Part shown: positions 3,205 to 58,015 of the stretch, piece after piece
Layout of the letters: every line of letters begins with the position of its first letter
Numbering within the stretch: the first letter of the stretch is position 1
Origin: Psammoneis japonica
Lineage: Eukaryota
Direction: 5' to 3'
Assembly: GCA_008632985.1 (NCBI GenBank)
Contig: QPGO01000109.1
Location: 186,001-250,000 of the forward strand
DNA: 64,000 bases
Position numbers and translations under genes: made by a program
Notes under the pieces: generated by a model
Database searches by the model: none
What the model saw: the letters and a program-made list of their open reading frames with translations, nothing else
What the model was told of the DNA's origin: nothing

Positions 3205-3486
3205 TCAGCACAATTCCAGCCACACTGCACTGTGACATCAACAGTTTTTTGGATCACGTCGCATGTCGCGCATGCACATTTCTGTGTGCGACATTCTACA
3301 AAATTGTTTCACTCAACATTTGTGAGAATCATGCAAACACACTGGGCATGTTCTCAAATGTCTGCAGAACACACCCGGGCAAACTGTTGATGATGTGCTG
3401 CAAGTGTGAAGGAGGAGATGCACTCGCAAAATTGCCTCTTTTTCTGTATGTCACACGGAGAGTCCCACCTGGGACTGGAGCCCATC
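3205..3486 (-). mobile_element. Decayed relative of MITE-A (or right end of the upstream transposase element)
   Basis: 3226-3290 matches the reverse complement of 29220-29280. 3449-3486 (tgtcacacggagagtcccacctgggactggagcccatc) matches the reverse complement of the MITE-A left end. Confidence 0.65.
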
Positions 3487-12498: not shown

Positions 12499-15400
12499 TT
12501 AATGGGCTGATGCCATTGGTGTCGGATGGTTGATGGCGTTTGATGTCTGGTGTTGCGCGATGTTGTGTGCGTGCGTTGCGAGTCCCTGCTTGCACCACTT
12601 GTCCTCGTCTTCCCAGTCAGGGTGCTTGGGGAACTTCATTTTTAGCGCTTCTTTGACCTTTCCAAAAATTCGCTGCTTTGCGTCAATCCCCAACAGCCCG
12701 TTGGAGGGATTGTCATGCCGACAGATGGGCTCACATGACAAGAACTTGCTGAAGCGCATCACAAGTGTCCTGAGGTGGCATCCATCCACATGACGTTCCT
12801 CCAACCCGCGAAACGGCTTGTCTTGCTTTTTGTCTTGAAACGTGTCGAACGTTTTGATTGCAGCCTTGTCGCCACTCATGGCAGAAGGGGCCCCAGACGC
12901 CTCAGTGATTGGCTCCCCAAGGGTCAAAGAGGGCATGCTGCATGGCTGCTCTGTGGTTGCAGGTGGCTTCTGTGGCTGCGTCTGTGTTTTTGTGAGACGA
13001 CATCTCCTCTGTGTTGTGTCTCTCGTCTCGAGCTTTGGCACGGCATCGCAGAAGTCTTGCGGATGGTGCTGAGTCTGATGATGTAAAAATTCTTGTGTGC
13101 ATGCAGACATGGTGTGTTCCACCAACTTCAACTTTCAGAGAACTTTCGGGTTGCTTCTTCTGAAAGTTGCCAACTCCATTCCGGAAAAATCTTCAACACA
13201 CGTGACTCAGGATAATTTCACACATGCCGATTTGCAACCTTTTTCCAGTGTTGTAAAATCGTCAACTTTCTCCCAACAATCACGGGTCGCAACCATCGAT
13301 TGTGCGCGGCTTCGCAGCAATCAAAAGATCGCAATGCGCGTGCTTGCCACGTGTGACAATCGACTGCAATCGCGATCGAGGTTGGCCCCCACTCGGAATT
13401 CGCGCGCCCCATGCAGGGGCACCCCTCCCCTGTGCAACAACGCATTTTTTGTGAATGAACACCACGTTTTGGTCAATTTTTGGTCCTGTGTTCACCGAAA
13501 ATCCCGTTTCACACGACTGAATTTTAGACACGAATCGATCGTGATCGATTGCGAACACGATTGCGATTGTTGTGACCAGTGCCGGACAAACAATCAGCAG
13601 ATTGCAGTCATTTTGATCACGATCCGCAATCGAGTTGCAAACAGGATTGCAGCTGAGTTGGCGATTTTACAATGGTGCCTTTTTTGCGAACATTTGGCCC
13701 ATCATCTGTCCGTCAGAATGTGGATTTTTGTGACCCTTCAGGCCTTTTTCACCGCGACACAGCACGGCACAATGGCGCCATCATGCCATTGTGATTTTGA
13801 GCACAATGGAAGGTGGGACATCGGTCGCCAATGATTGCATTGGTCCCTTTTGATGCTCTGAATGCTCGAATGTGTCATCGGTGACCGATGCCCCACCTTC
13901 CTTTGTCATGAAAATGCCATCTCTTTTTCGCCATGGCCGCACCACGTGCCAAGCGTTGAGCGATCTTGTGAGTGATGACAAGGCATGCACATCTCTGCAT
14001 GATTTAGTGCGCGTCATTTGAATTTCCAATTTTCTCACACAACATCATCAACCGTCATCGTTGTTCATGTGGCCATGGCATCCAGCAAGAAAAATGGCAG
14101 CGATGCAGGAAAGAAATGATTTGTTGTCCTGTTAAAAAAAGAGAGTCAACAATGCTCTCGTTCTTTTGATGGCACACGTCTTGGCAAGCTTTGATGGGAA
14201 ATGGCAAAACTCAGGCGACATTTGCCGTGTGCTCCAGGTTGGCGGCATTGCAGGTGGAACAGCCCAAAGTGACACGCCGGATTAAATCCAGAAGGGATCT
14301 GGATCCAAGGGCTTGGTTTCATTTTGCAGAAAGTCTGATGACAATGAAAGGCACTGCCATTCAGTGAAATTTGAATCTGACCCCGATGCTCCCGAATCTC
14401 AAGCCCACATTCAAATTGAGTCATTCCGGGTCGACTTGTTGGCGTGCTGCATGGTTCACATGATTCCCTTGTTGAATCTGTTGATGCTCACATTGCACAA
14501 TCGACGTGTTCCAGCAGCACGTGAACCAAATCATGCACAAAAATGACATTTGCGCAATTTTTGCGTGGCCCCTGACTTGCGATCGAACTTTCACCACCAA
14601 AAGCATGGATTCACACAAATGCAAATGTTTTGCAACACTGACAAGACTCGTGTGAGTGTTGCAATGTCATTTTCATTGCGCCATCTGTGTTTTTCATTGC
14701 ATCAAAAGATTTGCAACACAACGGATGATTTTCGGTGAAAGTGTTGCTTTCATTTGGATGTCACCCAAACGCGTCTTTCTACGATGCTGCTTGGCAGGTT
14801 TTCCACCTGCAAAGAAATCCCAGCATAAATCTGCTGACGCACAATCAGCATTGAGTCCACTGAGGAAGTTTGTGACACACATCCCATGAGGACTTGAACA
14901 CCCCTCAAAAAACTGTTTGCATGTCCATGCTCTAGAAACCCACAAAAGTCAATCCGTCTGAGCATTTTACATGAACATGCCACACACACTAAAAGACACA
15001 TAAATCACATTCAAAATTGATTGTTGTTTTGTGCGTCACCTGGGACTGGAACAATCTGTTTTGTGGCAGTGGCAATCATGGTGGCATTGATTTTTTCAAC
15101 TGCCATTGCAGTTGGCGACATTGCATCTAGAGTTGCAATTTACAATGTCATCACATTCTTTGAAAGCATCCTCTTCTTCAGACGACTCAGCTGCCGGCAT
15201 CCGTGCAGTTGTCATGGCAAAGAAACAGCTCTCGCTTTTTCTTTTCAGTGTTGATTGGAGGGAGAAAAAAATTCTCAGATTGCACGTAATTTCAGCACTG
15301 AAACACAAGTAGAACAGACAGCAAAAAGATGCGCAGGCCAACCCACATTCGCCAAATGGGATTCACGTGGCAGCCCTTCATGCCAGTGTTGACCAATTGC

Positions 15401-17520
15401 CAGGATCGACTGCAATCAGCCTCACTTTGATTGCAATCGCAACTGCAAACTCGATTGCAATGACCTGATTTTGGGAAGAGCCAAGGTCGCAATCACAGTC
15501 GACTGTTGCGATCAATTGCAGCCACAATTCGAGCTCTTTTTTTAGCTGAAATCAGCAAAACAGCTCAACATCTTTGCCTGCGGCGGGCTTTTCTCCTGCA
15601 TGGAGTGTGCTCTTGTGCAGAGAGCGCCGGCTCTGCCCGGCGGGGCAACTGCAATCACAGCTGCAATCTGTTCATCAGACTGCGCAATTGCTGCGTGATT
15701 GCAGTTGACCAGTTGCTGTTCCACAGCGATGCAATCAACTGGCTGCAATCTGATTGCTGCAGAAAACTTTGCAACCAGTTGACCCTGCTTCATGCCAGCC
15801 TGTTTCTTGAACTTGAGCATGTGCCGGCATGCACTTCAATGGGTGGAGTCGATCACACATTGAGACCCACCCAAGATCTCCAACCATTGAAATTTCTCCA
15901 TGTGCTTGCAATGCAACTTTTTGTGCATGGATGTGAAGGATCTCATTGAACTTGTCACAAAAAAATCCTCCCCTCTTTTTCTGATCCGGCCAGTTCATGA
16001 GTTTCAGTGCACTGACCAAAGTGTCCGACAAGCCGATGCTGACAGGCAGGTGGTGATTTGAGACCCATGCAGAAATGTGCGTGATTTCAGTGCTGGAGAT
16101 CAGATGCGCCCTGCAAGGGCCAAGGATTTTTCTGGGGGGTGAAAAGGGTGGCAATCGAATGCTCTCATCATGCTGTTTCAAACGCGATGCCTCTTGATTT
16201 TTTTCGACCAACAGAAAATTCTACGCATTTTTGTGCCACGCCCCACGCGGGTCTTAATTTGTGCCGGGTCTCATTTTGGGATCGACTCCTCTGCATCACC
16301 ACGTGAAAGGTGGGACATTGCAGCCACAGGCCCGGCACATTGTCTGTTCTTCAGTCTGCTGCAGAAAAATCACAGGAGACTTTGTGTGGAATCATCTCAC
16401 CACCTTTTCAGCTTTTTGATTGCCTCGCATTTCCACATTTTTCTTTCAATGATCACCTTTTGCAGATGACAATGGCTTTTCCTTTGGGTGTGAAACAATC
16501 ACACTGTGATGGACAGCTGCATCTGTACGACACGTGCAACATTTTGACGCTGCAGTCTTTGGCGTGGCACAGGTGGCACCATGGATGGCATCGTTGATGC
16601 AGTCGGCATTTGTGTTGGCGTTGGAGCAGCCGGCGATTCAGTCGGTGGTGTTGGAACAGTCTAGAGGCGGCGTTTGTGTTGGCGCAAGTGGCGTTGCAGT
16701 TGGAGCAGGCAGTGCTGGGTGGTTGCCTGTGTGGGACTTGGCGTCGGAGGTTGGAGCGAGATGTGGTTGGTGCAGCGGTGTTTGTGTTGGCGCAGGTGTC
16801 GTCATTGACAGCGTCATTGACGCAGGCGGTGTTGTCGTATTTGGCATTGGAGCAGCCGGCGACATCAAGTTGGCAACGTTGGAGTGGGTGGTGTTGGCAT
16901 TGGCACAATCAGCGACATTGGTGGAGGCGATGGCGCAGGCAGCATTGGAGTCATTGCAGGCAGTGTTGTTGGAGCAGCAGGCGGTTCTGGATGGCTGGGG
17001 GTGGCTGTGTGGGATTTGTTGTTGGAGAGATGGATTCTGTGATGGCAGTGGTGTTGGGTGGGTGACTGTTTGTGTTTGACTGCAATGCAAGGTAAATTTT
17101 CCAGCAGCTCCAGTGTTTTTAATTTCCTTTGCTGCAATGCTCAACCTTGACTCTCTCGATTCTTCGCCAAAGCTTTCATCTTGAGAAAAACTTGACACCA
17201 AGATTGTGGAGCTTCATTTTCGGTGGCCAGAAAGTGCAATGGTGCCCAAGACTTTGCAACAGGCTCTTCATCAGAGAGGACAAAGTGCTCGCCAGTCAAG
17301 TCAATCTCAAGCAACAACTGTGTTTGCTCTGGCCCTTGCTGCAAGAGATGGGTCATCCTTTTCTTTGTTTCTTTGCGTGGCTCAACTTCTTGAAGACCGC
17401 TTGCACTTCTGGTGAGTTGCGCTGGGCTGTTCAACGCGCATGGCAATCAATTGTCTGCCTTGCACTCACCATTGTTTCTGCTGCATTGTGCACAGGTGTT
17501 GTCAGCCGACGCGTCAGCTG
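12499..17520. mobile_element. Nested, degraded repeat block of unassigned families (TpA-depleted)
   Basis: Tyr-free broken ORFs, GATTGC/GCAATC-rich blocks at ~13250-13670 and ~15400-15790, and an embedded MITE. No assignable intact gene. Confidence 0.5.
14503..15053. mobile_element. MITE-B, old TpA-eroded copy
   Basis: Starts gacgtgttccag, ends cacctgggactggaac (last bases lost), aatc on both sides; colinear with 29616-30144. Confidence 0.85.
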
Positions 17521-17587
17521 AGGCGCTCGCCAACTCCTCATTCTCCGCCACAATTGACTTCAGTGAGGAGATGGCAGAATCTTTGTA

Positions 17588-20500
17588 GAGACGACAAACC
17601 TGGACACCCACCACAATCAGTCACGCGAACATTTTTGAAGAAAGGAATCTCACAATTTTGAACAAAAAAATAGAAAAAGTTGCGCTTTCTGTGAATCTAA
17701 GATTCCCTCTGATCGCCGCAACAACAGCGCAGGAATTGCATCCAACACAAAACCGTGGAATCTTTTTCACGCAGAAGTGTCGTTGCAATGTTGTTGCATT
17801 TGTTGACGACACAACAACCGTCCAGCTGCAGGCACCATCCGTTTTAGCCTCTCCACCCCCATGGGGATCCGAGTGCAAAGTTGCCTGCAGCTGGAAAGCA
17901 TGCAGAAGGCTGTGGCAACATCATTTCAGACCGTGTCGGCGTGTGACCGGCATTGAAACGACTTTGCGGCGGTGATTCGACGTGAGTGTGATGTGTCTGA
18001 TGAAGAAACATGCTCAATGCGGGGTTGCCAAATGATTCTCTGGCAAGAGATGCTCGGCACATCAATGCAAGTGAAGAGAATGGAAATGGAATGGGGACGT
18101 TCCGAAAAGAGTGTGCGCCAAGTGTTCTTCCAAATGGCGACAAAAATTCGAGCAACAGCAAGGTCAGATGCTGCTTTGTCACCAATGAAGGAAAACTCCC
18201 ACCTCCTGACAAAGCTGGAAACTTGTGGTGCAATCACATTGCCACCAAAGTTGTCTCTCCTGCAGTTTGTTGCAATGTGAGTGAGACGGACAAGAACAAG
18301 CTCCAAAGTGTGCTCAGCAAAGCACTGAAGAAAAGGAAAGAAAGGGAGAAGAAAAAGAAGGGCAAAGGAGGAAAGGAGCAACAAACAAATCCATCTGCTC
18401 CTCCTGCTCCTGCTCCTGCTCCCAGTCCTGCCACCTCCTCCAATGAAAACAATCAAACTGAGACACCGACAAAGAGAAATGCTGCTGGTGGCGATGGAGA
18501 CCAGGATCTGCTCTCGCCCATGTCGCAAGGCATTAAGAAGAAACACCCTTGCAAATTTCAGAACTCTCGTGACAGTCAAGGGAGGAAGCACATTGAATGG
18601 GAAGAATTGAGTGATGAGCAAGTGGCCAGAGCAGACAGCATTGCCAGCAACACTTTGAGAAAGCACGCGAACGAGCTTGAACAGCCACTGACAGTGCTGT
18701 CAAACAAGAACAAAGCCATGGCGAGTAAACTGCTAGACTTGCTTAAATCTTGCATGGAGTGTGCAAGTCAATTGGCTTGTGTGAGCAGCACCCAGGATGC
18801 AGACATGATGGACAAAGAAATTGTGGACGGCGTGCACGACTTCCTAGAGAAGCACAAGAGCCACGGTGCAGTTCCCACTGAAGTGCGCAATGCTGTTGAT
18901 GCAGTCATGACTGCTGCTTGCCACAGCTTAAAAGATTCTGCCAGTGGTTCAGACTCTTACAAGACTTCAACCAATCGTGTGGCGGAACGCCTGGGCACCC
19001 GATGGCACAAGGCAGACGACAGTCGAAAGCGAGCTAGAGAAATTAAGGAAAGCGAGGATGTTTTCGAAATTCGACCATGGAAAAAACGGAGTGACTGCAC
19101 ATGCGATCAAGCTCAGCCATGCGCACTCAAATTTTGTCATTCAGAAGAAGGATCTCGTGTTGATGCAGAGTCCAGTGGAGTTTGCAAGGAAAAGGATCCA
19201 GCAACGGGAAAAGTCGTCGCTCATCCAGCTCGAGCATGGAACGACACGACTCTTGAGAGCCGATTCGAAGCATTCCAAAAATCAGAAGCACATCGGACCT
19301 TTCAAGACACCTGTGAGAGCTCAACAGGCAAAGAACGATTCCGTGGCTGCACATGCCCTTGTGTGCAGGACCCGTCTGAACATTCTTGTGTTGATTTGCT
19401 GAAGACTGGACTGGAGGAGTGCATGAAATCATTGAACAAAGCGTCGAGCAGTCCATGTGTTGAAAAGCGAGTAGAAAATTGCACTTGTGACTTACACACT
19501 CAAATGAGAGAGGATGAGGATGATGGGAAAGGTGCTGACAACATCTTTTCATTGCTGGGAACAAACCACAGACAACTCGTTAAAGCATCATGCTGTCCGG
19601 CAAAGGAGGAACCAATGCTCTGCACAGAGGTCGGAGGCTGTCCACCCAAGCCAATCCCTTGGAAATGCACACACGGGAACTGTCAGAGTTGTGGAGTCAA
19701 AAAGATGAAGCTGCAAGAATGTAAAGCACTCACCGAGTGCGACATTAAAGTCCCGGCAAAGGAATGGTTGCTGGCGCCGAGAGCTGGGGCCAATGCGAAA
19801 GGGGAACAAAACACGCAGACAGAACTGACGGATGTCGAGCTGCCAGTGAAAACCGTCATAGAGCGACTGCTGATGCAGCTGGAGAAATGCAGAAAGCACC
19901 ATTGTGAGACTGAACTTGTCAATCTCATACGACGCATTGATGCACACACCTTTGCCCTCCAGGAGCTGCCAATCTTCACTGACTTCTCCGCAACGTGCGA
20001 TCTTCGAGCCTGCCTGACCGACAATTGCTCCATGGATGCCCGCGCCATCCTCTGCATGTTTGTTGTTTTACATTCTCCGAGGACAATCACAGTTGAGCAC
20101 AATGGAGTGGACAAGGAGTGGCGAGTTAACGAATGCGATGTCTGGCACTTCTTTGGCGAAACAATGTCAAAAGGAAAGAAGAACGACCACGTCTTCCACA
20201 ACGCATGCCTTCTCGAGATTGTCCAACACTGCAAGCGTCAATTCAAGCGCAACAGTGTCGAGTTAATGAGAACAATGGTGTGGACCGACAACTGTGGCCC
20301 TCAATGCAAGTGCAATCAAAACTTTTTGAGAATCTCAAGATTTGCAAGCACAGTCGACGGGGTTACAGCAACTCACCGGTTTGCCCAGAAACGTCATTTT
20401 AAATGTGTTTGGGATGCAGCAGGGAAGGTGGTGAAGCATTGCATGCGGCGTGTGGAGCTCCGCAGAGCAAGATTGCCCATGGCATTTGATTGCTTCAAGG

Positions 20501-21410
20501 CGATGCGACAAGAGCTCGGGAACTGCAAACCTGCGACCGACTGGAATGCCCTTGAAGCATCCAAGCATCCTGACATCCTTGCAAAGAAAAGATTCGTGGC
20601 ATCCAGAAGATTTTTTGGACATGCAACTGAAAAGAAAGAGCAGTTTGAGCAGCTGCAAAACGAATTCAAGAACATTGCATTCACCGACCGTGAAAACGCA
20701 CCTCAAGGAACCCGAGTCAAGGACACCCAGAAACTTCATCAAGCATCTGGTTTTCTCAATCCAAAGCCACAGGACCCAAGCAAGTGGAAGATCCTTGCAG
20801 CGAAAATGCCTTGTTCGTGCCTTTGTTGTCGAAAGAAAGTCCAAGAGACCTGTCCGTTCAAGCACATCACAGATTCAAAGGCGTGTTGGGTGAGAGAACG
20901 AATCGACAACTCGGCGAGAACAGCAGAATTACAAGGGCAGCTCGAGACACACTTGCCGCAACTTGCTGAGGTGTTTGGAACGAGTGACATCACCAAGAAA
21001 ATGATCCAGGACAAGCTCAGACTGCTTGGACTGCCGATGTCAGGCCTCAAACACGAGGTTGCGCAATGTCTTGTTGATCACATCCGTTCCGGAAATGCAG
21101 ATGATTCGTCTCCGCCACTTGCTGTGCATTGTGCTGTTGTGGAAACTGACATGCACAATGATGAGAATGAAGACGATTTGGATGGTGTTGAGGAGGCGGA
21201 GGAGGCAGAGATGCCATGGCGCAGACAACAAACTCGTGTCATTGATTGTTGTTGTTGTTGTTTTTTGAGTGATCAAATGAGTGGTGCTGAGCGCACCTCG
21301 CGTGTTTTTTGCATTCATGACTCAAAGCCAAAAAAATAAAAAATTCGCTGAAACCATTGCCCTCTTTGACACCTGATTGTGGTGGGTGTCCCTGGGCCAA
21401 CACACTCTCT
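17588..21410 (+). mobile_element. Sola2-like DNA transposon
   Basis: Perfect 19-bp inverted repeat ggacacccaccacaatcag (17602-17620) / ctgattgtggtgggtgtcc (21373-21391) flanking a transposase ORF. Exact termini and TSD not resolved. Confidence 0.65.
18010..21339 (+). pseudogene. Sola2-like DDD transposase with C-terminal SAP-like motif, hypermutated (1 Tyr in 1109 aa)
   Basis: FTDFSA, WTDNCGPQCK and HFKCVWDAAGKVVK resemble the DF(S/A)ENY, SDxCxxQYK and HGKGxxDGxG motifs. KKMIQDKLRLLGLPMSGLKHEVAQCL is SAP-like. Confidence 0.7.
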
Positions 21411-21635
21411 CCAATGTCAGGTCAGCTAGAGCTGATGCCAGTTTGTGTGGACTGGATTTTTGGCTCTTGATTGAGGCATGCGCACAATGAGCACACAGCA
21501 GCGCAATGTCAGACAGAAGACAGTCATGCATTTTTTGCGATTTGCATGACAAATTGCCGTCGACGCCGACGATGACGATGACATTTTTCTCAAGCTCATG
21601 CAGGATGACTTTGAAATGGGCACTTGTCACAATGA

Positions 21636-21982
21636 TCGATTGCACTGTGTAGAACACGCACATGCACAGAAAGTCCCCCTGACGAAGTCTCAATCATTGA
21701 CAATGAATGCACAACAGTGACAGGTTGGAAAGCAGAGCTCGGTGTTGGTGCGACGTTTTGCTTTCGAGTGGAGATTGCTCTCGGGAACTTTCATGACTGA
21801 GTGCATTCTCGTGCTTAACAAACTAAATGTCCACAATGACAAAAGACTCTGGGACACATCGCTGTCATTGTTGTCGTCATGACAACGCACCACCATCATG
21901 TCGCTGATTTTCAGCGATGATGCGTGCAGCGCGCACGAAGTTTCCAGCACAAAAAAAATTCAGAAAGTCCAATCGTCTTGCC
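21636..21982. repeat. Dispersed ~350-bp repeat, copy 2
   Basis: Colinear with 5331-5675. Confidence 0.75.
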
Positions 21983-23476
21983 ATCCATCAGATCGTTGTG
22001 CGATTACCTTGAGTCTTCAAAGTGTCTGGTCAAAGTCTTGTGGGGGTCAGCAGCCACTCGGCTTGATGATGAGCATCTGCAGCACATTTTTCTGGAGAAA
22101 CGGTGGCCACGCGGCTTGATGATGACGAGCTTTTATCAGGAGACAGTGCAGTTTCTTCTTCTTCATTGTTGGTAGAATGTAAAGCTAACTTCATTTCATT
22201 GCATTTTGCGTGCCTCGAAACTTGGTCGTCGACGACTTGGAATTCACTGGTGCAAGTGCACGATTCCTCCTTTGCGTGCTCGGGAACGATTGCAACAACG
22301 GTTTCGCCACAAAGATCACTGGTCTTGAGCTGACTGCAAGTCTCCTCAATCTTTTTCCTGGTGCATCATCCACATGCACAAAGAAAGGGGTCGTGGTCAA
22401 TGTGAAGCAACGTGCTGAAAAGAAGTGAGTCGGGCACCACCTTGGCACTCTTCACATTGTGCTGCACCATCCAGAATTTTTCTCTGGGGAAGCACCCTTC
22501 CAGACATCCACTAATTTATTAAACCATTCAATGAATGCATTAGCGATTGACAAAACCTCTGACGGTGAAGTTTTTTGGCTGACTCGTGCTCTGTCGGAGG
22601 CAGCAAACAACAACACAAAATGTGAGGTGAGTCATTCAAATGTAGAAATGGCAACTTAAATCGAGCTTGGGAAGCGGAGTCGCCATGCAGGGATCTTCTT
22701 ATGGGTATAAGTAAGACATTCATGCCCCGATTCCGCTTCCCATGTCAACATTGACGCCACCGCAACCGACAGACTCACCATGGTGGGGTGGAGTGTTTCG
22801 CCGTGCAAAAAGCACGGGAGTGTCGGAAGGGTGGACGAACACCGAGCACAACATTTGAGTCGAAGTATTCGAGCTACAAGGTCCCTTCACGTACCGGTAG
22901 GGCCTTTCACGTGGTGACGTGGGCTTTTCGTCTGTGGTCAGCCCGTCACACCGTTGGCCCCGTCATCACGCACAGTCGTCGTGAAGTTGCGACCCATACA
23001 TAAAATGATAATCTACTACATCTCGGCTTATGGGCGGGGTAGGCTCCTAGTAGCTAGAGATGGGGATAGATTGCAATTCTCAAGTCCGCAACCTTTAATA
23101 CATTCAAATGCTCTAAATTGAGCACAATGAGTCATAGAGATGCTATTGTATGTAGGGCTAGTCTTATTATGTTCTCTCCCGATCTCCGTAGGACTTTTGT
23201 TTCGCAACAACAAGCACGATAGAACCCCACGACCGGATCGAAAGGAAACTCCGCGAAGCAAATGTAACCTACAAAAACTTGTTTCCATTTCCTATCCTGA
23301 AATACGTATCTTTTTCGTCCTTGAATAATAAATCATACCGATGCAACTACTTACAAGCAAACTATAAGGTACGCAACGACCTCTTTCTTTGTACTTTAAC
23401 CTAAAACTAGTTTCATCCAACGAATAGTCAGACCGAATCACTAGCTAATCTCCTCACCACGTTTTAAATGATAGTT

Positions 23477-24226
23477 TCAAACATAACTAGTTTCTGCCGG
23501 TTGCTGTTGTTGCTGTTGTTGCGCTCCACCCAAGAATCCAAACAATCCCGATCGTAGCATCGACATGGCACCGGCTTGAGCACCCTGTTGCATCATTTGT
23601 TGAAATTTCGCCTTTTGATCGGAACTGCACTTGTAATATCCATAGACATTGGCAATACTCAAACTGAGCGCCATGACGACCGTCAACAACCACCTCAATT
23701 CCAATTTGAGTAAACCAATCACAAAGAGTCCCGCCCAGACACATGGTGTCGCATACAGGACGGTCCAAAAGACACGTGAATCAAACTTGTTGACTACAAC
23801 ATGCTGTTGTTGGTTGGCAGCCGCCGATTCAAAAATCCATCGCGTCGTGTTTCCTTCAATTTTATTCCACCACCGCAATCCCACCAAGAGACGTCCGGTA
23901 ATGTTTTTGACGACCCAAAAATCGGCACTCAATAATAAAATACAAAGGACCGTAACGGTAATAAAATTAGCACCACCACCAAAGAAACCACCAAAAATAT
24001 ACAACACAAATGCGAGCGTCTTGAAGAGAACGTGAAACAAACAAACCGTAGGATGTGCACTCTGCTGTACCAACGCTGCCATGGTGCCGGATGGAGTGGA
24101 AGCAGTGGTGGAAGTCACTGAAGACGTAGCAGCAGCCGAGTCCATGGGGCCACTGGGGAGTGGTGGAGGCTGGTTACCGCCGCCGCTGCCTTCAATGTTG
24201 AATTGCAAGTCATGAGAAGATGCCAT
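23477..24226 (-). CDS. TVP23: Golgi membrane protein TVP23/FAM18 (DUF846)
   Basis: HPTVCLFHVLFK, DFWVVKNITGRLLVGLRWWN, WIFES, FWTVLY, NVYGYYKC. Confidence 0.93.
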   Translation of the reverse strand: MASSHDLQFNIEGSGGGNQPPPLPSGPMDSAAATSSVTSTTASTPSGTMAALVQQSAHPTVCLFHVLFKTLAFVLYIFGGFFGGGANFITVTVLCILLLSADFWVVKNITGRLLVGLRWWNKIEGNTTRWIFESAAANQQQHVVVNKFDSRVFWTVLYATPCVWAGLFVIGLLKLELRWLLTVVMALSLSIANVYGYYKCSSDQKAKFQQMMQQGAQAGAMSMLRSGLFGFLGGAQQQQQQQPAETSYV

Positions 24227-24303
24227 GGTCGATGTTGCGAGTGTTGTGTTGTGCCAGAAAAAAGTCTCTCTGCTGTTGCGGTCTTGCGGTCGTCCGTAAT
24301 CAA

Positions 24304-24473
24304 TGCAAGCTCAAGCTGAAAACTGATGTCAAAACAAAGAAGTGAGTAGACCGAAGAGAGGGGAGCCTACAGCAAGCGTTAGCGAACGCTGGCGAGCCTC
24401 TCTCAAACGGCTACGTTAATCTAACATCCAAAATTAATGCTATATATCAGAAGCGTGCGAGTGAGTTGCTGCA
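24304..24473 (-). repeat. Gypsy 3' LTR (170 bp)
   Basis: Direct repeat of 30477-30641, adjacent to the PPT. Confidence 0.95.
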
Positions 24474-24596
24474 CTCTTCCCTTCCATGATCCGAAAGAAC
24501 TAGAGGATCATGCAAAGGGCCAAAAACCAAGGACCAAAACCAAAAACAAAGACAACAACAGGAGGAAACCCAGGTGTTGGGAAGAAAACCCCCTGA

Positions 24597-27500
24597 TCAA
24601 CCGCGAAAAGGAATCAGGCGCCGAATGTTGAGGCACTCAACCACATGAGGAGCTCGACAAACCGAGAGTGTGCCATTTACATGCACTTGAACAACAGGAC
24701 AAGGACCATGAGCACGAGGCTCGAGTCTGGATGGCTCAATGTGCTTGATTAGAACTTGATCACCCACTTGATGATCGCAGGATCTTCTCTTGGCATTGGC
24801 TCGTCGCAAGTTGTCGTTGATCAGCGTCTGGCGATGGCCTTGAATCGTCAACAAATCCGCCAGCACTGGGACATCCAAGATCATGTCACGTCCGAACACC
24901 ATGGCACCTGGTGAAATCTGCAAGGAACGGGAAACAGCACAATGGGTTGCACACATTGCAGTTGCCAAAGCATCGTCCATGAGGCTGGCTGCATCTTGAA
25001 GGTTTTGAGGTGGATCAGAAGCAATGAGCGTGTGCAACACATTGCCGACAGTCTGGTGCATTCATCCACAAATGGCGTTGGCTTGAGGGTTGTGTGAAGC
25101 AGTCGGCACATCATCAATTCTGGCTCGTTGCAATGGCATCTGAAATTCATGCCCGGTGAACTCGCCGCCGTCATCGTGGATGCATCGATTCGGTCTGGGA
25201 TGGCGTGCAAGCCAGCAGTTTTCGAATTGGTTGGCAACATGTCGAGCAGTTTCATTCTCAATTCTCACCAGTTCAACAAGATTGGAGACAGGATCAACAC
25301 AGGTCAACGCGCGAAACTCAATCTTTCCATTCGGCACTTTGATTTTCCACGGGCCAATGAGGTCAATCGCCACTTCCGACCAGGGGGTCAATGGAGCTTC
25401 TCGTTCGGGCAGCTCTCCACAGCCAGGACCCAAAGTTTTGTTACGTTGGCAATCAGCACAAGAACATTCATCACACATGCGACGTAACCCAGGGTGACAA
25501 CAATGAGCCTGGATTGTTTCACGCATGCGCTGGCTTCCAGCATGGCCAAGGACGAGATGACACCACCGTAAGATGTCGGGCATGAGCGCAGTCGGCAAAC
25601 AAATTTTCCATTGTCCTGGAGAATCATTTGATCGCATACGATGACACACAAGCAGTCGATTGTTCACACATTCCACGAGGAAACGATCAGGGTGAGCAAT
25701 GCGCATCTGGTTCAATTGTTGGTCCTCGAACTGGTGCTCTTGAATCCGTTGTAACGTCATTGGATTTTGCATCTCCTGCATCGTAGGGTAATTCAAAAAA
25801 GAATCGAACAGTTCTGGCTCATCAACAAAGAAAGAGAAGAAGTGTGAGTGGCCTTCATTTTCAATGTTGCGACAACACTTGAATCGGCATGTGCCGAGCT
25901 CCAAGTCCTCATCGCGGAAATCCTTGACTTCGGATGGTTCCTCACTCGGCACCAACTTCGAATCGAGCGGAGCAAAATTAACAACAGTTCCTTTACCCGG
26001 AGCCAAGCTCTTCCCTTCAGAGGGAGGATCCATGCAAGGCAAACGAGAAAAACAATCAGCCAAGACATTCAAGCGGGCTTCGACACAATGGAATTGAGGG
26101 GCAAAGTCTTCAAGAAAGAGGCGCCAACGGAGCACACGTTGTGAATTTAAGGTGCAAAAGGCAAGGTTCTTGTGGTCGGTGAATGCACGCAAGTCGCCGC
26201 CAAGAAGCATTGTTCGGAATTCGCGGAAGCACATGACAATGGCCAAGAGTTCTTTTTCGATCGTCGAGTGGTTTTGTTGCGCCGCATTCAGCTTTCGAGA
26301 CCAACATGCAACAGGTTTTCCGACTTGTGCAATTGCTGCGCCCATTTGGCAATCACTGGCATCGGTGTAGACATGGAAGGGTTTGTTGTGATTCGGGTGC
26401 GTCATCAACGTCTCGGCCGCTAGCACTGCTTTCATCTCTTCGAACGCTGCCTGACAATCTGTTGTCCATGTCCACGAGCCTTTGCCTGTGAGATCTGTCA
26501 AGGGTTTCAACAAGTGAGAATGCCGAGGCCACATGTTGCGACAGCATGTCACAGCACCAAGGAACAAACGAAGCTGCTTGACATTTTCCGGAGGTTGCAT
26601 TCGCAGAACAGCTTCCACTTTCTTCTTCCACGGACGAATTCCAGTCGGAGTTAGCCAATGCCCAAGGAAATCCGTTTCCTGCACACACCATTCACATTTC
26701 AAAGGGTTCACTTTAAATCCAGCTTCTTCCAAACGTTGCAGGAGTTTGTCGAGACGAGCAAGGTGAACATCAAAATTGTCATCAAATTGAGCGAGATCAT
26801 CAACACATGCGTCAACGTCCAAGTCATGTGCAGTTTTCTCAATCAAGCATTGTGCAATGTCCGGAGCCGGCTTCAAACCCATTGCTGGACGGCAGCATCG
26901 ATGCTTTCCAAAGGGTGTCACGATTGTCATCAGATCTTTGGAATCGTCGTCCAGTTCAAACGTACAGTGCATCATTGAGAGATCCAACTTTGTAAGAAAT
27001 TTGTGCCCGGCTCTCTTTTGCAACACATCTTGAATGATCGGCAAGGGACAAACCTTGCGCTTGAGGGCTTTGTTGAGTTCCCGAAAGTCGCTGAGCCACC
27101 GCACTCGACCATCTTTCTTCGGTCGAATAAAGGCACCTGCAGCCCATTCCGAAGTTCCGGCTTCTTCAAGAACGCCAAGAGCCACTGAGTGATCTAATTC
27201 TCGCTTGAAAGTCTCGAGATCATTGTGCGGCACTGCACACGCTCGAGAATGGCGCGGAACGGCATTGGGATTAATGTCAAGGTGAACTTTTTCGCCAGCA
27301 CACTTGCCAAGGGTGCCATCAAAAAGAGCAGTGTGTTTCTCCAACACGAGACGCAATTTCTCTTGTTGTTCGGCAGCAAGATGCTTCTGAGCTGAAGCTG
27401 CTTCAGACGGGGACGTCTCCTCACACTTTGCATCGAGGATGCAACTGTCCCACACGTCATCATCATCAGCCAGCTCATCAGTTAAATCATCGAGCCATTG

Positions 27501-28088
27501 TTGGATGCCAGTCCGCTGATTCTTCGGCTTCATTGCAATGCTTGAACCGAGCCACTTGACAATTCCGTGTTCGAAATCCAACGTGATGCCCGCTCTCGCC
27601 AAGAAGTCCTGTCCAAGGATCACATCATGTTGGCAGGGTGAGTCAAACACATGCGCATGCATGCCATCAACATGTTTGGTCTTGTCGAATTCAGGGAGCA
27701 CCAAGTCCTGCAATCAAACATAACGAGTTGATTCGAATTCTCCTGCTGTTGTCCTAAACTTTGCACGAATCGGTCCTGTCTCTTCCAATGCTGGAACCGC
27801 TCCAACCGGCAACACCCGAGCATGAATCATTGGGTGGGTTCCACCGGAATCAAGCAACACCCGCATCACGCGCTTGCTTTCCTCATCTTGAATGAATCGC
27901 GCCATGAATGAGGTTGCAGGGACCACATTTGATGGTTCAAATGGTTTTGTTTTTGGAGTTGGTGCAGCGCACTCAAGTCCCACATCGTCTTCATCATTCA
28001 CAGCACAATTTCTGAAATCATCATCATCAAATAAATCAGCAGCGTGTGCACAACAATCATCAACACAATCAGTGCAATCATCAAACAC
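24597..28088 (-). pseudogene. Gypsy pol (protease, RT, RNase H, integrase) with in-frame stops
   Basis: LLDSGG protease; LSDFRELN, LDLSMM, TPFGK, ACVDDL (YxDD); YTDASD, IEKELL, TDHKNL; HLVLGH...CADCQ; IDLIGP, DDGGEF, PQANAI. Confidence 0.93.
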
Positions 28089-28924
28089 ATGAGAATCAGG
28101 AGCGACACACTCGGACGACAGCTCTTCAAGCTCATTGGGTCAGTGTTGACCGCGTCCCGAGAAGCGACCACCAGGTCGAAGAATTCCCGTTCCACCTCGA
28201 TGCTCTCGAGGCCCTCCCATCGAATCAAGATGATGGCTTTCAGCAGACCAATCATCAGGAGGAGCCGTTCTGGCCGGATTGCCGCAACCGCCGCCATCTG
28301 CATTGGTTCGGGTGTCGTTTTGACACTGCATGTGAGAGCCACCATCATCATGATGCTCGCCGCTGTTGCCGCCAGAGTTGCAGTTTCCGCGACCACGGCC
28401 TTGCCAACCACGACCTTGCGCTCCGCCACAACCATGACCTCCGCCTCAACCGCCACCTCGACTGCCACGGCCACCATGTCCGCGACCTCCGCGATCAGCT
28501 CTTGGACGGCAGTTGTTAGAGTCAGGATTCATGGCGCAATCTCTCCACTTGTGATTGTGAGCATGCCAAGGACATTGAGGTTCTGGGTCAGTGCGGTTGC
28601 CTTTCTTCTTGGCAGAGCCGCCACCTTTCAACTGTCTGTCTTTGCGCTTCTTCGAAGTCTTCTTGTTCCCATCTGCAAATGATTTCTCCGTGCTCACACA
28701 CGTGACAATTTCCGCTGACGCATCATTTCCAATCGTGCGTCCTGCTCTTGCATGCATCTCGCGCCACGACAAAGGGAAGCTGTCGAAGATCATCTTCTTC
28801 TTCTGGTTCTGAGTGACAACTGGATTGTTTCCCGGCAACTTGTTCGTGTGTCACACTGAGGTCTCCATTCGATCTGCGTGTGCCTGCACTTCAACATCAT
28901 GTGGCTTTTTAAGAGAGAGCAAGT

Positions 28925-29313
28925 GACGCGTTCCAGCCCTGGGTGGGACTCCGTGTGACATTGGGCCCGTAGAATTCTACGTGCGAGCTCAGCAGTACGA
29001 GAATTTAATCAATGGACACATTTATCTTCAACATCAAATAAACGGCCAAGTTTGTGGTGCAATTACGCCTCTCACCACTCGACGTTTTTGCAAATGCACC
29101 TGCCCTGCGCGATTCTCAAGACATCACAGAATCGCACTGTAACAAAAAATGTCAAAAGTTGTTGGACGGATCGCTCAACAAGTGCACCGTAAAATGACAC
29201 AAAACATCAAAAAAATCACGTAGAAATCTACGTGCGCGACATACGACGTGATTCAAAAAACTGTCGATGTCACAGTTCAGCAGTGCGAGGTCCCACCAGA
29301 CCTGGAACGCGTC
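28925..29313. mobile_element. MITE-A (389 bp), TIR GACGCGTTCCAG, 4-bp TSD aagt
   Basis: aagt|gacgcgttccag...ctggaacgcgtc|aagt; second copy at 52472-52861. Confidence 0.92.
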
Positions 29314-29615
29314 AAGTGTTCAATCATCGTGTCACGCGCTTCAGTTTCACAATGTGACAAATAAAAATGAGCCAATTCTTGGTCAAAACGAGCCACCGTC
29401 TTTTGCGCATTCGGAATCGCCATGGTGAGATTGGACCATTTGTCTTCAGCGGCATCTGTCAACACTTCCTCGAAATTGTCAAACAGTTCTTCGCCTGCAG
29501 TGAATTCAAGTTTTGCAGCCAGTTTACGAAAACGATCTTCCACGAACAACAACGCTTCAATGCCATTAGTTCCATCAAAACAAGGGCACTTCTTCGTACG
29601 CGTGCTACCATCATC

Positions 29616-30144
29616 GACGTGTTCCAGCCGCTCGTGAACCCAATCGTGCACAAAAACGACATTTGCGCGATTTTTGCGCGGTCCCTAACTTACGATCGAA
29701 CTTTCACCACCAAAAGTATAGATTTACTCAAATATATATGTTTTGCAACACTAACAAGACTCGTGTGAGTGTTGCAATATCATTGTTATTGTGCTATCTA
29801 TGTTTTTCATTGCGTTAAACGATTCGTAACACAACGGATGATTTTCGGCGAAAATATTGCCGTTACAACGATGCTATTTGGTATGTTTTCTACCTACAAA
29901 AAAATCTCAGTATAAATCTACTGACGTACAATCATTATTGAGTCTACTGAGGAAGTTTATGATACATATCCCATGAGGATTTGAATGCCCCTCAAAAAAC
30001 TATTTAAATGTTCATACTCTAGAGTCCTATAAAAGTCAATCCGTCTAAGTATTTTTATTAAAATGCTCCATACACTAGAATATACATAAATTATATTCAA
30101 AATCCGATTGTCGTTTTGTGCGTCACCTGGGACTGGAACACGTC
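29616..30144. mobile_element. MITE-B (529 bp), young TpA-rich copy, TIR GACGTGTTCCAG, 4-bp TSD catc
   Basis: catc|gacgtgttccag...ctggaacacgtc|catc. Confidence 0.92.
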
Positions 30145-30476
30145 CATCATGCGATTGAGTCAATTTTGCAAGTTCCAAATCCGAGTGAGCAAATTTCACA
30201 GCATGCAAAATGCACGGTTCTTTAAGACTCTCGCGATTGCTCATCAGGCCAAGTTGGTCCTCCAAGAAACTGCTTCAAGCACTCTACCTTCGACTCGAGT
30301 TGTGCAACCCGAATCGCCAAATCTTGTTCGCATTGTTTTCGTGTCTCCTTTTGCCGTTTTTGTTCCAAAGCCCAATTCGCTGCCTTCGCTCTCAACATTC
30401 TTTTCTCTTGTTTCGTAAGCCTGTTAGTTGCATCGTTGTTTCTCATTCAGCTCTTTACAATCGACTGTAATTACAG

Positions 30477-30641
30477 TGCAAGCTCAAGCTGAAAACTGAT
30501 GTCAAAACAAAGAAGTGAGTAGACCGAAGAGAGGGGAGCCTAAGCGTTAGCGAACGGTGGCGAGCCTCTCTCAAACGGCTACGTTAATCTAATATCCAAA
30601 ATTTATACTATATATCAGAAGCGTGCGAGTGAGTTGCTGCA
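30477..30641 (-). repeat. Gypsy 5' LTR (165 bp)
   Basis: Direct repeat of 24304-24473 with a 5-bp indel. Confidence 0.95.
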
Positions 30642-31010: not shown

Positions 31011-32607
31011 ATGTTACTACGGTTGTTGTTGTTGTTATCGTGCTTGTTCCAATTTGCACTCGCAGATACTCCCGAACAAAACTTATGCGGCTTGTATTTG
31101 GCTCCCTCGTCCATTCCCAATGCGGGTCTCGGTGTGTTTGCGGGTCACCAATCGTTTCAACCTGACGATTTGGTGGTGCATGGTGATTTGGTAGTGCCAT
31201 TGTATGACATGCCCCAAGATGCGTATCCCATTTTTCCATGGGATGATTATACGTGGGGTGCCGATGGGACCTTTCCAAATGGACATGAAGAACAAGACGA
31301 TGAACACACGATAACGGCAGCCATTTTTGGAATGGGTGCTGCGATTAATTGCATGTTTGGATTGGTCAATGTCGATGCCACCCTGCCCAAATCGGACAAT
31401 GCCGGCTTGCATCGTTCTCGAGATCCAGGAATCGGTGCCTTTACTCCGTATCATGATCGGAAAATATACGCTTATACAGAGATTCCCGCCGGTATGGAAT
31501 TGTTTGGGAGTTATGGTGAACCCTACTTTACAACACGTACCGAAATTTATGGTTACATTCCCTTTGAAGACAGCTTTAAGCAAGCCGATCAAGTCATTCG
31601 GAAATTTGTCAATCTCACCAAGAATGCAACCTTGTGGAGGACTGCTGCCAAGGAGGAAACTTCAAATTCATCGCGACGCTTTGGTGCTCTGTGGGACACG
31701 ATTGTTGGTATGAAACATGGAATTGGATTTGAATCAAGAGCCCTTCATGCATTGCCAGAGGAGTATTCTTCCGTAAAACACATTGCCGAGATTGGTACAT
31801 CCCTAACACATTACAATCGATCCATTCGTACCATGGAATGGCTCGAAGAACATGGCAAGTGTGCCGATAACATTCGACCGGGACTATCGACCCTTCCTCA
31901 AGCGGGCCGAGGAGCCTTTGCCACGCGATTTATACCCAAGGGTGGCTTGGTCGCTCCGGCTCCCTTGATCCATATACCCGATCGGGCCATTTTGGATATC
32001 TATGACGACGATGATAAGGACAAAGTGGTTCATCAACAACTATTGCTCAATTATTGTTTTGGACATGCCAATTCGACATTGTTGCTCAGTCCTTATGGCA
32101 TATTTACAAGTCTCATTAATCACTCATCTCAAACACCAAACGCCAAGATTATATGGTCGAAACACATGGCCCACGCGGAATGGAAAAACATGTCGGTCGA
32201 ATCCTTGAACAAGTATTATCATGCCGGATTGGCATTTGATTTTGTAGCATTGCGGGATATCCACAAGAATGAAGAAATACTCATTGACTATGGACCCGAA
32301 TGGGAAGATGCATGGAAGGAGCACGTCAAGACGTATGTTCCCGTCAAGGATTCTATTCAGTATCAGACTGGATTTGAATTAAATGAGGATCTTGACCGTA
32401 TATTGTGGTCATACGACCAATATCCATACTATTCGCCAAATGTCACAATTTGGATGCATGGTATCTATCTCGAGTACCTCAGCGGAACAACAGCGTCGGA
32501 AAAACAACAACTTGACTATTGCATGATTCGAATCGTTGGACATTATTTTGTTGGCAAACAAGTCTTGTACAATGTCGAAGTCATTGAGAGGATCGAGGAG
32601 GACGACG

Positions 32608-32640
<33 letters not shown>

Positions 32641-32801
32641 GAGAAATTTTCAAACACGTAGTGTTTGGTGTGCCTCGTGATGCTATTTTGTTTAAAGATG
32701 AACAATACACCCGCGATCATCAAATGCATTCGGCATTTCGACACACAATGATGATTCCAGATGACATGATGCCGACGGCTTGGAAGAATTTGGTAAATTG
32801 A
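31011..32801 (+). CDS. Signal-peptide protein with two SET-like domains
   Basis: MLLRLLLLLSCLFQFALA signal; CGLYLAPSSIPNAGLGVFA...INC...EIPAGMELFGSYG; STLPQAGRGAFATR...SLINHS...EEILIDYG. Confidence 0.8.
32610..32640 (+). repeat. (ACA)n poly-Thr microsatellite in CDS
   Basis: About ten tandem ACA. Confidence 0.9.
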
Positions 32802-49860: not shown

Positions 49861-51063
49861 AGCAGGCAAGCCAAGCGGAAAGTGCATTTCCACACGCTGC
49901 GACTTTGTCAACCCATGAAGGAGCAGTCAAAGTGTGTGCCTTTTCAATTTAGTGGTAGATGCTCAGAGCACCTGCGACGAAAGCAGTCCAGAACACTTCA
50001 CTGGATCGAAAGATTGCGCGATGCGAATCATCTCAGAGATCGGGTGCCCAAGGCACAACAGCATGAAGGATGTCTCCTTCCGCTTGATGAAGCTGTCGGA
50101 CCCATTTTCCACATGGCAGGCCCATGTGCTCGGCAATTTTTTGCTTGTAGATAAGAGAAGCACAGCAATGAGCACCCGTGCATTGTGTGAGTGCTTTGCA
50201 AACACACACTTGTGGAACACGTCGTCCAAAACCTTCGGGTTCTCCGTGCAGTTGTCGACAACTCAAGCATGAAATCTCCATTCCGAAGCCATTTCTTCGA
50301 CATGTGCAACAAATCTCCATACAACGTGGCACTTGCCAGACAGATTTCATGATCCTGTGCCCATGGTTGACGTCTGTCAATCTGCCTGTCGACTGCGCGC
50401 AATCGCGCGCTTCAATTTTCAAATTCCGCCATCAAAACTCTGCTCGACATTGCAGTCATAATTTTTCAGTCAACGACTTTTGCAACAACAACAGCTGCTA
50501 GTTTACAACCTTGAGCATCAGCTCTTTTGACATCTGCAGTCATGGATCGGTGCAACAAGTGGTCATCGAGCCCAAACGCAGTGTGCAGAGTCTTCAACCG
50601 GAACTGCACCAATCCACCGCGTTCTCGTCGAACGCAACAGTCATCTCAAGCCGTCGATCGTCCGTTTCAAACGGAATCGCCGTTCATCGATTCGACAGAC
50701 GTCTCCAGTCTGTCGACGTCGATGCTGCGCACAGCTGAGCCTCCCTCCTTCGTCGATGGGCTCGCATGCATTTTCCCGCCACCGGAGCCGATCCACGGAG
50801 CCGGAATCATCATCGTCAAGCGTCGTCATTTCCGGCCATTGCGATGCCAAACCCGGATTGAGTCGTTTTGAACTCTCCGAGTCCACACCAAGTCAAGACC
50901 TGCCTCTCACACCATTCGACGATGATGCTCTCGTTGCCGATTGATTGTTGAGCTTCTGCGGCAGTCTCCCAACGATGCGGCGTTCAGAACTTCATTTTGC
51001 CGTTTGTGTTTCAAACTCTACGTAGCTTCAGTGCCAAGTTCTGCGCATTGATTCAAATCCACC

Positions 51064-53215: not shown

Positions 53216-53353
53216 GTCTCCTGCAAACCCGCTTCTGCGTCTCAGAGGGAGCGCCTGCCAGTTGCAGTCGAGACTGTCAAACCTGAAGATGCTGACGACT
53301 TCAGCGATTGCTTCGATGCATGTGACGACCTGTCTTGGGACGATTCCATTGTT

Positions 53354-56300: not shown

Positions 56301-58015
56301 ATTCGGGTGTTTTGGACATTCAGGACCCGCGGATCTACGCCGCTAAAGTCAAACGCGATGCGGATAATCCGAATGTTCGCGAGGCTCTCTCGGGTGATTT
56401 CGCTGAGCAATGCATTGAAGCCATGAAGACGGAGGCATCTGCTCTTGTAAATCGTAAAACGTGGCAATTTGTGAAACGGGAGAAGTCAATGAACATGCTC
56501 AAGTCCACGTGGGCATTCAAGTTGAAACGATTGCCGGGTGGCACGCCGCTTGAGTTCAAAGCGCGATTTTGTGTCCGAGGAGATCCACAAAAAGAGGGAG
56601 TTGACTGCTTCGAGACCTGCGCTCCAGTGGTCCAATGGTCGACCATCTGTCTCGTGCTGAGCGCTGTCCCACAAGAAGGATGGACCACCCGTCAGGTCGA
56701 TCACACCAACGCTTTTGCGCAGGCCGAGATGACGGAAGACGTTTGTGTCGAACCACCCAAGTGTTTCGCTCCCAGTTCGGGATCCAATGTTGTCTTGAAG
56801 CTGCTCAAGAGTCTCTGCGGTCTCAAGCAAGCTCCCAAGTGCTTCTTTGACAAGCTGCGTGAAGGATTGTTGGAACGTGGATGGACCCAGTCGCAAGTCG
56901 ACCCGCGCCCATTTTTCAAGGACGGCATGATTTGTGTAGTCTGTGTTGATGATGCTGTCCTCGCTGGCAAGAATGGAGCCACTCTAGAACATGAGATCAA
57001 GGCTCTAGGCATCCAAGACGACGAACAACGCCATGCATTCGAGTTGCGAAACGAGGGAGAAGTTGGTGACTTCCTCGGCATCAAGATTCGCAAAACCGGA
57101 CCCAAGGAATTCCTCCTCACCCAGCCTGGACTTGTTGACAAGGCCCTCAAAACAGCTGGCATGGAAGATTGCCGCTCTTCTCCCACTCCTGGTGCTGCCT
57201 CTCCATGTCATGCGGATAAAGAGGGAGCCGAATTCGACGAGAACTGGGACCACCGTTCCGTCATCGGCATGTTGATGCATCTGTCATCCAACTCCCGACC
57301 AGACATCTGCTGCGCCACGCATCAAGCCGCCCGTTTCTCACATGCTCCCAAGCATTCCCATGCGATTGCGGTGAAGCATGTTCTGCGCTACTTGCAAGGC
57401 ACCAAGGACAAGGGACTCTGTCTGCGCCCTGGCGACAACGAACGTGTTGATTGTTTCGTTGACGCCGACTTCGCCAGCCTCTACGGTCACGAAGACTCTC
57501 AAGATCCGGTCAGCGTCAAGTCCCGCACCGGATGTGTCATCTTGCATTGCGATTGTCCCATTTTATGGGTTTCTAAGCTGCACACGCAAATGGCACTCTC
57601 CACCATGGAAGCCGAGCACCTTGCTCTGTCGGCTGCGATGCGCGACCTGATTCCGATTCGTGAAATTTTGAAGGAATTCAAGTGTCATGTTTTCGGTCTC
57701 ACGGATTACAAGACCCCTGCCACCACCAAGTCCAAGGCCTTTTCAGATGCAAAGGATGGTGCGATCCCTTCTTCAGCAGTTTATGAAGACAATCAGGCGT
57801 GCCTCAAGTTTGCGAAAATGGCCAAGTTATCTCCACGTGCCAAACACATTGGCATTCCCTGTCATTGGTTCCGCACCAAGGTTGAGGCTCTTGAGATCCG
57901 GATTGAGCCTGCAGGAACTGATTCCCAGTTAGCTGATCAATTTGCAAAGGGACTTGTTGCTGACAAGTTTGAATCTGGTCGGTTGAGTCTCTCAGGCTGG
58001 CAGCTCTGCGGTTGA
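53354..58015 (+). pseudogene. Copia pol, open frame but catalytically mutated
   Basis: VIFDAGAS protease; WHARFGH...CDTC; VSVDH, TDGG, QNGVAER; FKARFCVRG, LKSLCGLKQAP, VVCVDD; DADFA, STMEAE, EDNQAC, QLADQFAK. Confidence 0.93.

Follow-up and report, generated by a model that had tools for sequence, protein, structure and literature searches.

In a 64-kb window of the genome of the diatom Psammoneis japonica (contig QPGO01000109.1, positions 186,001 to 250,000; coordinates below count from the first letter of the window), two copies, A and B, of one miniature inverted-repeat transposable element (MITE) differ by the site-by-site loss of TA dinucleotides in copy A. The best explanation, which we hold with good confidence, is a mutator acting on mobile DNA, together with a TA clock that is valid only locally. 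The pair offers a genuine, clear-cut case of an unusual mutator, polarised, non-coding and readable site by site, and the same window shows the limits of the clock. TA content is expressed throughout as the observed-to-expected ratio (o/e). The name MITE-B is a label coined in a preliminary description of this DNA.

14503..15052, + strand: MITE-B copy A, TA-stripped (6 TA, o/e 0.14)
29616..30144, + strand: MITE-B copy B, TA-rich (47 TA, o/e 0.88), inserted in the gag of a Gypsy element

The two copies start with an identical 12-nt terminal inverted repeat (TIR). Copy B has complete 12-nt TIRs and a 4-nt target site duplication (TSD), CATC; copy A has an intact left TIR, a right TIR without its last 5 nt and the probable TSD AATC. 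MITE-B shows the traits of a MITE, namely a length of 529-550 nt, 12-nt TIRs, a 4-nt TSD, an empty site and many copies; 1051 contig pieces of sequencing run X1 map to the 811-nt stretch 29480-30290. Neither copy contains an open reading frame of at least 150 aa, no autonomous element carrying MITE-B TIRs is present anywhere in the window, and a pattern search of metagenome contigs for the MITE 5' end gave zero matches. Shorter MITE-B forms that lack ~250 nt of the middle (29847-29860 to 30106-30114) occur among the X1 contigs.

The elements were aligned over their full length (A 14503-15051, B 29616-30144). On recounting, the first 245 nt of B hold 16 TA and those of A none, as the preliminary description had stated; in A the 16 sites read TG (8), CA (7) and AA (1), and the three example changes that it quoted are present in the sequence. 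Its estimate of about seven CpG changes also agrees with the count, seven CpG of B being TG (4) or CA (3) in A. Along its full length B has 47 TA, whose counterparts in A are TG (16), CA (23), TA (4) and other dinucleotides (4, one of which adjoins an indel so that its state is alignment-dependent), and 9 of the 26 CpG of B have decayed by transition. Transitions between the copies affect 39/94 A/T bases within TA as against 10/240 other A/T bases (Fisher p = 3e-16), and 9/50 bases within CpG as against 3/137 other C/G bases (p = 4e-4); with both classes enriched, the proposal that two processes converge on TG/CA is borne out. The copies also differ at 27/522 other aligned sites, and a 26-nt segment of copy A (14760-14785) is absent from copy B; they are therefore cousins, and B is not the ancestor of A. 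Of the 'before/after pair' first described, the TA loss site by site stands but the direct descent does not. Within the 26-nt segment, two neighbouring steps at which the end of a TA-rich contig has TA are CG in A and CA in other contigs.

TpA depletion in the window is restricted to mobile DNA, transposons being the targets, and host genes are spared: gene regions have a TA o/e of 0.55-0.66 and mobile-DNA blocks of 0.04-0.14, with sharp borders. Copy A lies in such a block and copy B in a dead Gypsy long terminal repeat (LTR) retrotransposon.

12499..22500, no strand assigned: TA-stripped mobile-DNA block hosting copy A (o/e 0.08-0.10), including the transposase-like frame 18004-21339
24304..30641, - strand: dead LTR retrotransposon of the Gypsy type, carrying copy B and MITE-C copy 1, with the 5-nt TSD ATCAA on both sides
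30477..30641, - strand: Gypsy 5' LTR, keeping 12 TA (o/e 1.01)
24304..24473, - strand: Gypsy 3' LTR, keeping 10 TA (o/e 0.89), with one further TA changed to TG and another to CA
25065..27713, - strand: Gypsy pol frame (reverse transcriptase, RNase H, integrase), TA o/e 0.10
29314..29611, - strand: gag segment between the two MITEs, TA o/e 0.22, with 4 conserved Tyr columns (2 His, 1 Tyr, 1 Phe)
30149..30460, - strand: gag N-terminus and leader on the far side of copy B, TA o/e 0.22

The direction of change at the A/B sites is, on comparison with related sequences, the loss of TA. Contigs of four sequencing runs were mapped on 29480-30290. A>G or T>C accounts for 68 of the 109 variant places in X1. 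Within the MITE, 32 of the X1 variant rows seen (the 40 best-supported of 110) comprise 19 TA>TG/CA, 2 with TG/CA in B and TA elsewhere, and 11 others; at the TA site 29725-6 both products are present in X1 (shares 0.44 and 0.35). The single contigs of X2, X3 and X5 (the last from another study, at low depth and 179 nt long) are free of T>C and have no more than one A>G in ~180-230 nt, and they carry copy A's letter at the non-TA sites 29728, 29737 and 29820. Because these TA-rich relatives share A's letters at three non-TA sites, TA is placed at the root.

The coding parts of the Gypsy element point the same way. At the conserved columns of pol (residue present in at least 80% of 120 homologues), 19 of 20 Tyr are changed (12 to Cys, 7 to His) and one is kept, 0/20 conserved Cys/His have become Tyr, and 27 of the 40 changes fit TA>TG/CA; the 120 homologues themselves contain 37 Tyr>Cys/His in 2385 cells. 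In gag, 7/9 Tyr columns are Cys/His, one is Tyr and one is Phe, a residue also found there in 4/18 homologues. Seven related Gypsy pol regions from metagenomes are essentially unstripped (TA o/e 0.38-0.77 in 7/7) and serve as a baseline, and Tyr is kept at 103 of the 115 conserved-Tyr positions covered in these loci. No stripped pol was found among the 120 homologues, in a type of search that favours intact proteins. One of the related loci (L006) has a CpG o/e of 0.39 but a TA o/e of 0.63, so that CpG decay without TA loss is possible elsewhere.

The process acts on DNA and on both strands. This follows from the balance of coding-strand products in Gypsy pol and gag (14 Cys and 12 His, or 13 His counting the codon beside the TSD), from the random interleaving of TG and CA along copy A (22 runs, 19.9 expected), from the fact that non-coding MITEs are affected and from the TG-versus-CA doublets of the Copia LTRs described below. 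Processive one-strand runs were not found along copy A, and a one-strand motif (TAY or RTA) fails to predict the direction there (9 vs 9-10 at asymmetric sites). Between A and B, A>G changes affect 39/94 bases after T, 4/113 after A, 4/59 after G and 2/67 after C. The bases on both sides of the TA step differ between surviving and ordinary sites (R, purine; Y, pyrimidine): the TA left in 33 kb of stripped DNA are 6 RTAY, 80 mixed and 79 YTAR, as against 335 RTAY, 570 mixed and 156 YTAR in 25 kb of gene DNA. Across 30 one-kb bins the loss of TA is correlated with that of CpG (rho 0.51, p = 0.004), which fits a dependence of both on a silenced state.

Mutation after insertion is seen in two pairs of sequences, the LTRs of a Copia element and the two longer copies of a second family, MITE-C.

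28925..29313, + strand: MITE-C copy 1, same TIR type, TSD AAGT, in Gypsy gag; 12 TA, ~33-54% of TA lost
52472..52861, + strand: MITE-C copy 2, TSD CCCC, in Copia gag (o/e 0.10); 19 TA, ~6-35% lost
3225..3288, - strand: third MITE-C copy, a fragment in an older block, with TA and CpG sites changed to TG/CA
50366..58218, + strand: dead Copia element, its LTRs (50366-50560 and 58024-58218) stripped (3 and 2 TA)

The MITE-C pair has 0.5% background divergence and 4 TG-versus-CA doublets. The Copia LTRs have 3 such doublets, 2/195 other differences (1.0%) and ~67-78% of their TA lost, a figure that counts doublets as TA-derived; no TSD was recognised for this element. A loss of ~70% of TA at 1% background would indirectly point to a rate roughly 100-fold or more over background, and the TA-loss signal is saturated near 1% background divergence.

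These observations suggest the following course of events. Copies A and B would descend from a TA-rich MITE ancestor. A DNA-level mutator on mobile DNA would replace adenine by G in TA steps of either strand, so that TG or CA results, most strongly in RTAY and most weakly in YTAR, with slower CpG decay alongside leading to the same products. Copy A or its ancestors would have stayed in the mutating state until ~85-90% of TA and 35% of CpG were gone, while copy B would have jumped into a Gypsy gag already short of much TA and, judging by the nesting, would have lost few since. Silenced, CG-methylated chromatin may mark the targets; an adenine would be deaminated and replication would then fix the lesion as G. 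The likeliest agent, which we name tentatively, would be a TadA/ADAT-like enzyme working on adenine in such chromatin, the class that Mettrop et al. put forward for Bigelowiella natans (see below). CRISPR knockouts can be made in stramenopiles (PMC9998398), so the enzyme could be found.

Other chemistries under the same targeting are, taken together, about as probable. Repair patches filled near methylated CpG by an error-prone polymerase of the eta type, oxidised thymine pairing with G, or deamination of methylated adenine would go with the observed correlation of TA loss with CpG decay. The importance of both flanking bases is as expected of a duplex-shape preference, the damaged base, A or T, is indistinguishable from sequence, and the two TA>CG steps in the 26-nt segment of copy A fit repeated or patch-wise events. 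Polymerase eta in somatic hypermutation mutates A:T pairs at WA motifs, with A>G favouring TA as here, but AA is also mutated in that system; between A and B, AA changes at the background level of the remaining non-TA contexts (4/113), and stripped blocks show no depletion of AA+TT (o/e ~1.14-1.39, genes 1.16-1.20).

Inheritance of lost sites may contribute, though we think it somewhat less probable: many TA-poor copies, perhaps A among them, could have been copied from masters that were already stripped, so that TA-poor would not mean old. This is compatible with a mutator acting on mobile DNA. Copy B has zero TA in its first 70 nt and in its last 49 nt, from which stripped copies may still be able to transpose. 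At 10 of the 19 TA rows (among the best-supported) one direction has above half of the depth, up to 0.85, and copy A matches the listed direction at 15/17 sites (p = 0.001 at 50:50; 0.002-0.03 by site shares). However, best-supported rows favour a majority direction, contig depth is not copy number, and a context wider than four bases could yield the same directional skew. The host of copy A is equally stripped, its CpG losses and partial TIR loss fit an old copy, and the doublets in the other pairs are independent events.

The site of copy B and the Gypsy LTRs bear on whether TA content also dates insertions. The gag frame is interrupted by copy B, and homologues run unbroken across the insertion site. 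Empty-site forms are present in X1, where contigs join 29611 to 30145 and 29612 to 30147; these may derive from other copies of the Gypsy family. The flanks of copy B contain 5 TA per ~300 nt on each side, with 13.9 expected at gene level (p = 0.006 each). Since B keeps 17 RTAY sites and its two flanks together 1, the flanks are depleted and an empty site is present, copy B was probably inserted after most of the local mutation, as the preliminary description had proposed. Its further statement that the host gag is TA-stripped is right as to the location of B within gag; the flanks themselves are only partly stripped (0.22, pol 0.10). All three nested TA-rich MITE copies exceed their hosts in TA o/e (B 0.88 vs 0.22; MITE-C copy 1 0.46 vs 0.07-0.22; MITE-C copy 2 0.69 vs 0.10).

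That TA falls steadily with time since insertion, and so can date insertions in general, is improbable. The nested copies just listed are as such a clock would have them, and the MITE-C pair (0.5%, up to 35-54% lost) and the Copia LTRs (1.0%, 67-78%) rank as expected. The Gypsy LTRs contradict it. They share one TSD, were inserted together with the stripped interior and differ at 2/165 other sites (1.2%) and by one indel, yet they keep 22/24 TA, sensitive contexts included, whereas the Copia LTRs have lost ~67-78% at like divergence. Set against the interior, in which 19/20 Tyr are lost, the sparing has p = 4e-9, although the two sets of sites are not strictly comparable. Copy B has four changes against 92-100% of X1 depth (29935, 30024, 30025 and 30078), which are near-private, and few TA lost (at least 3), and the saturation near 1% divergence further limits any such clock. 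The claim of a general insertion-age clock thus has to be given up. The local inference from nesting order holds: TA content orders nested insertions at one locus and gives no dating across loci.

The loss of TA is best read as the time spent in a mutating state along the lineage of a copy, the copy itself and its ancestors included. The spared Gypsy LTRs lie ~80 and ~370 nt from the start codons of two host genes.

23477..24226, - strand: unstripped host gene (DUF846), its first ATG lying at ~80 nt from the Gypsy 3' LTR
31011..32801, + strand: host SET-domain gene, unstripped, ~370 nt from the Gypsy 5' LTR

LTRs close to host promoters are spared, so exposure would depend on position as well as on time; the sparing is seen for one element, and position is its presumed cause. 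The two genes point away from each other on either side of the Gypsy element (24226-31011), and the space between them was probably once a short promoter region common to both. For the SET-domain gene, the three nearest Atlas clusters are of diatom proteins and have Bacillariophyta as their commonest source. In genomes with such a mutator, ages from LTR-LTR and copy-to-consensus comparisons would be inflated unless TA and CpG are masked, and a majority-rule consensus would recover the stripped form, not the active one.

Several points weigh against a mutator with a locally valid clock. No mapped contig piece spans the whole of 29480-30290, runs X1-X3 come from one sample that is possibly the source of the window, and the X1 rows are confined to the best-supported ones. 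The two TA>CG steps in the 26-nt segment of A are not explicable by one deamination, ten non-TA A/T transitions separate A and B, and transversions are found at 4/47 TA. Doublets can stem from CpG as well as from TA, and the loss estimates are hence given as ranges. The sparing of the Gypsy LTRs could be a legacy of a master copy whose interior was already stripped, and not an effect of position. Lastly, the gag flanks of B (0.22) are less stripped than pol (0.10); age and position are therefore confounded at B, and with gag near the 5' LTR less stripped than pol, the site of B is partly sheltered.

Misreading of a modified base, or A-to-I editing of retrotransposon RNA that was then copied into DNA, is very unlikely to have produced the pattern. 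The sequencing platform of the window and the X1 library are not on record, which leaves some room for an artefact, but strand-coherent misreading predicts long TG or CA runs where the order is random, if one strand alone were modified, about half of the TA would survive, RNA editing predicts TG only on the coding strand (14 vs 12 seen) and would miss the MITEs, and the LTR doublets arise after insertion. A gain of TA in copy B by C>T from a TG/CA ancestor, the outcome named in the preliminary description as fatal to its reading, can be dismissed for practical purposes: a pair of sequences gives no polarity by itself, and repeat-induced point mutation (RIP) likewise leaves TA opposite CA/TG, but the outgroup contigs, the Tyr columns of pol and gag (19/20 Tyr lost and none gained in pol) and the unstripped relatives place TA first, both products are found at one site, and B would need 9 CpG gains.

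Other features of the window were noted. The transposase-like frame 18004-21339 (+ strand), in the block hosting copy A, is stop-free over 1111 aa, TA-stripped and carries a WTDNC motif; a Pfam search with it gave no hit, and Pfam was uninformative for the block as well. A SAP domain is present in some of the frame's 22 unnamed homologues, and its look-alikes are unnamed or DUF7869. An old repeat pair (5156-5704 and 21475-22013, 71% identical) is stripped in both members, differs mainly at CpG and may mark related DNA transposons. A ~1.5-kb tandem duplication with a 26-nt satellite (59250-62000) has lost almost all TA and CpG and shows 10 TG-versus-CA doublets in 528 aligned nt. The stretch 49800-50365, left of the Copia 5' LTR, is TA-poor and may be an older element of another kind or a spread of the mutation process. 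A TA-rich inverted repeat of 152 nt (40990-41141) in a gene-rich region is perhaps a small unstripped element. The helicase gene 9259-12498 (- strand) encodes six helicase-associated domains in 204-nt tandem repeats; its TA o/e of ~0.3 is below that of other genes, yet it is not stripped. The secreted-looking Cys- and Pro-rich proteins with repeated CC motifs at 33182-35401 (- strand) and 46904-48690 are encoded by ordinary TA-bearing genes and are not products of Tyr-to-Cys change.

Like other MITEs with a 4-nt TSD, MITE-B is short, non-coding, bounded by TIRs and present in many copies. MITE-B is not assigned to a superfamily, and Sola is a possible candidate: a 4-nt TSD, as in Sola, is seen in MITE-B, and a DDD-type transposase-like frame, itself possibly Sola-like, lies nearby but is not linked to MITE-B TIRs.

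In fungal RIP, dinucleotide-specific transitions wreck repeats on both strands and spare genes, and TA is made from CA/TG by C>T, which lowers the GC content. The process in the window is likewise two-stranded and dinucleotide-specific and likewise hits repeats and spares genes, but its direction is opposite; fungal RIP was rejected, as TA is lost here and not gained. RIP is triggered by duplication as such and involves a RID-type methylase and premeiotic timing; the 204-nt repeats of the helicase gene still hold 3-5 TA apiece and the Gypsy LTRs, a duplicated sequence, are spared, both of which speak weakly against such a trigger here. Decay of methyl-CpG would account for the slower process (9/26 CpG in A) and does not act on TA. 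In Phaeodactylum tricornutum DNMT5 methylates CG of transposons (PMC9998398; PMC12344493), and a CG methylation of this type suggests, by analogy, how targets may be marked in the present case.

The closest counterpart is in the rhizarian alga Bigelowiella natans. A preprint (Mettrop et al., bioRxiv 10.64898/2026.01.13.699255) describes TpA hypermutation of integrated virophage and nucleocytoplasmic large DNA virus (NCLDV) DNA, in which TpA becomes TpG or CpA on both strands, in foreign DNA only, ~1000-fold above background, de novo and in some lines only. Its authors found TpA-poor transposon domains and suggested transposons as targets; an ADAT2-like deaminase is proposed there as a candidate and not demonstrated, and the words diatom and CpG are absent from the main text (bioRxiv 10.64898/2026.01.13.699255). 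In the open-access literature, with most subscription papers outside this scope, no diatom report of TpA hypermutation was found and this preprint was the sole relevant one; within the same literature, a targeted A:T>G:C mutator of DNA was found described for one rhizarian alga only. The two systems share A>G/T>C transitions at TpA, the formation of both products and the restriction to mobile or foreign DNA, three of the five features listed. B. natans is a rhizarian with single-copy viral inserts and mild depletion (Rho 0.45) seen de novo, whereas here the host is a diatom, the targets are LTR elements, DNA transposons and MITEs, and depletion is near saturation (o/e 0.04-0.14) and read from standing sequence; here, too, CpG decays alongside, RTAY is preferred and LTRs next to genes are spared. 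The process works like that of B. natans, though not necessarily through a common machinery. That diatoms share with the rhizarian alga an adenine-directed DNA mutator as a transposon defence, a chemical mirror of RIP that follows silenced chromatin, stops at promoter-adjacent DNA, favours RTAY and lets MITEs with TA-free ends escape and multiply in stripped form, is a speculation that we rate as rather unlikely; if it were true, the mutator would shape which transposons survive. A diatom version, close to saturation and active on several classes of transposon, would extend this kind of mutator, as known from B. natans, to the stramenopiles.

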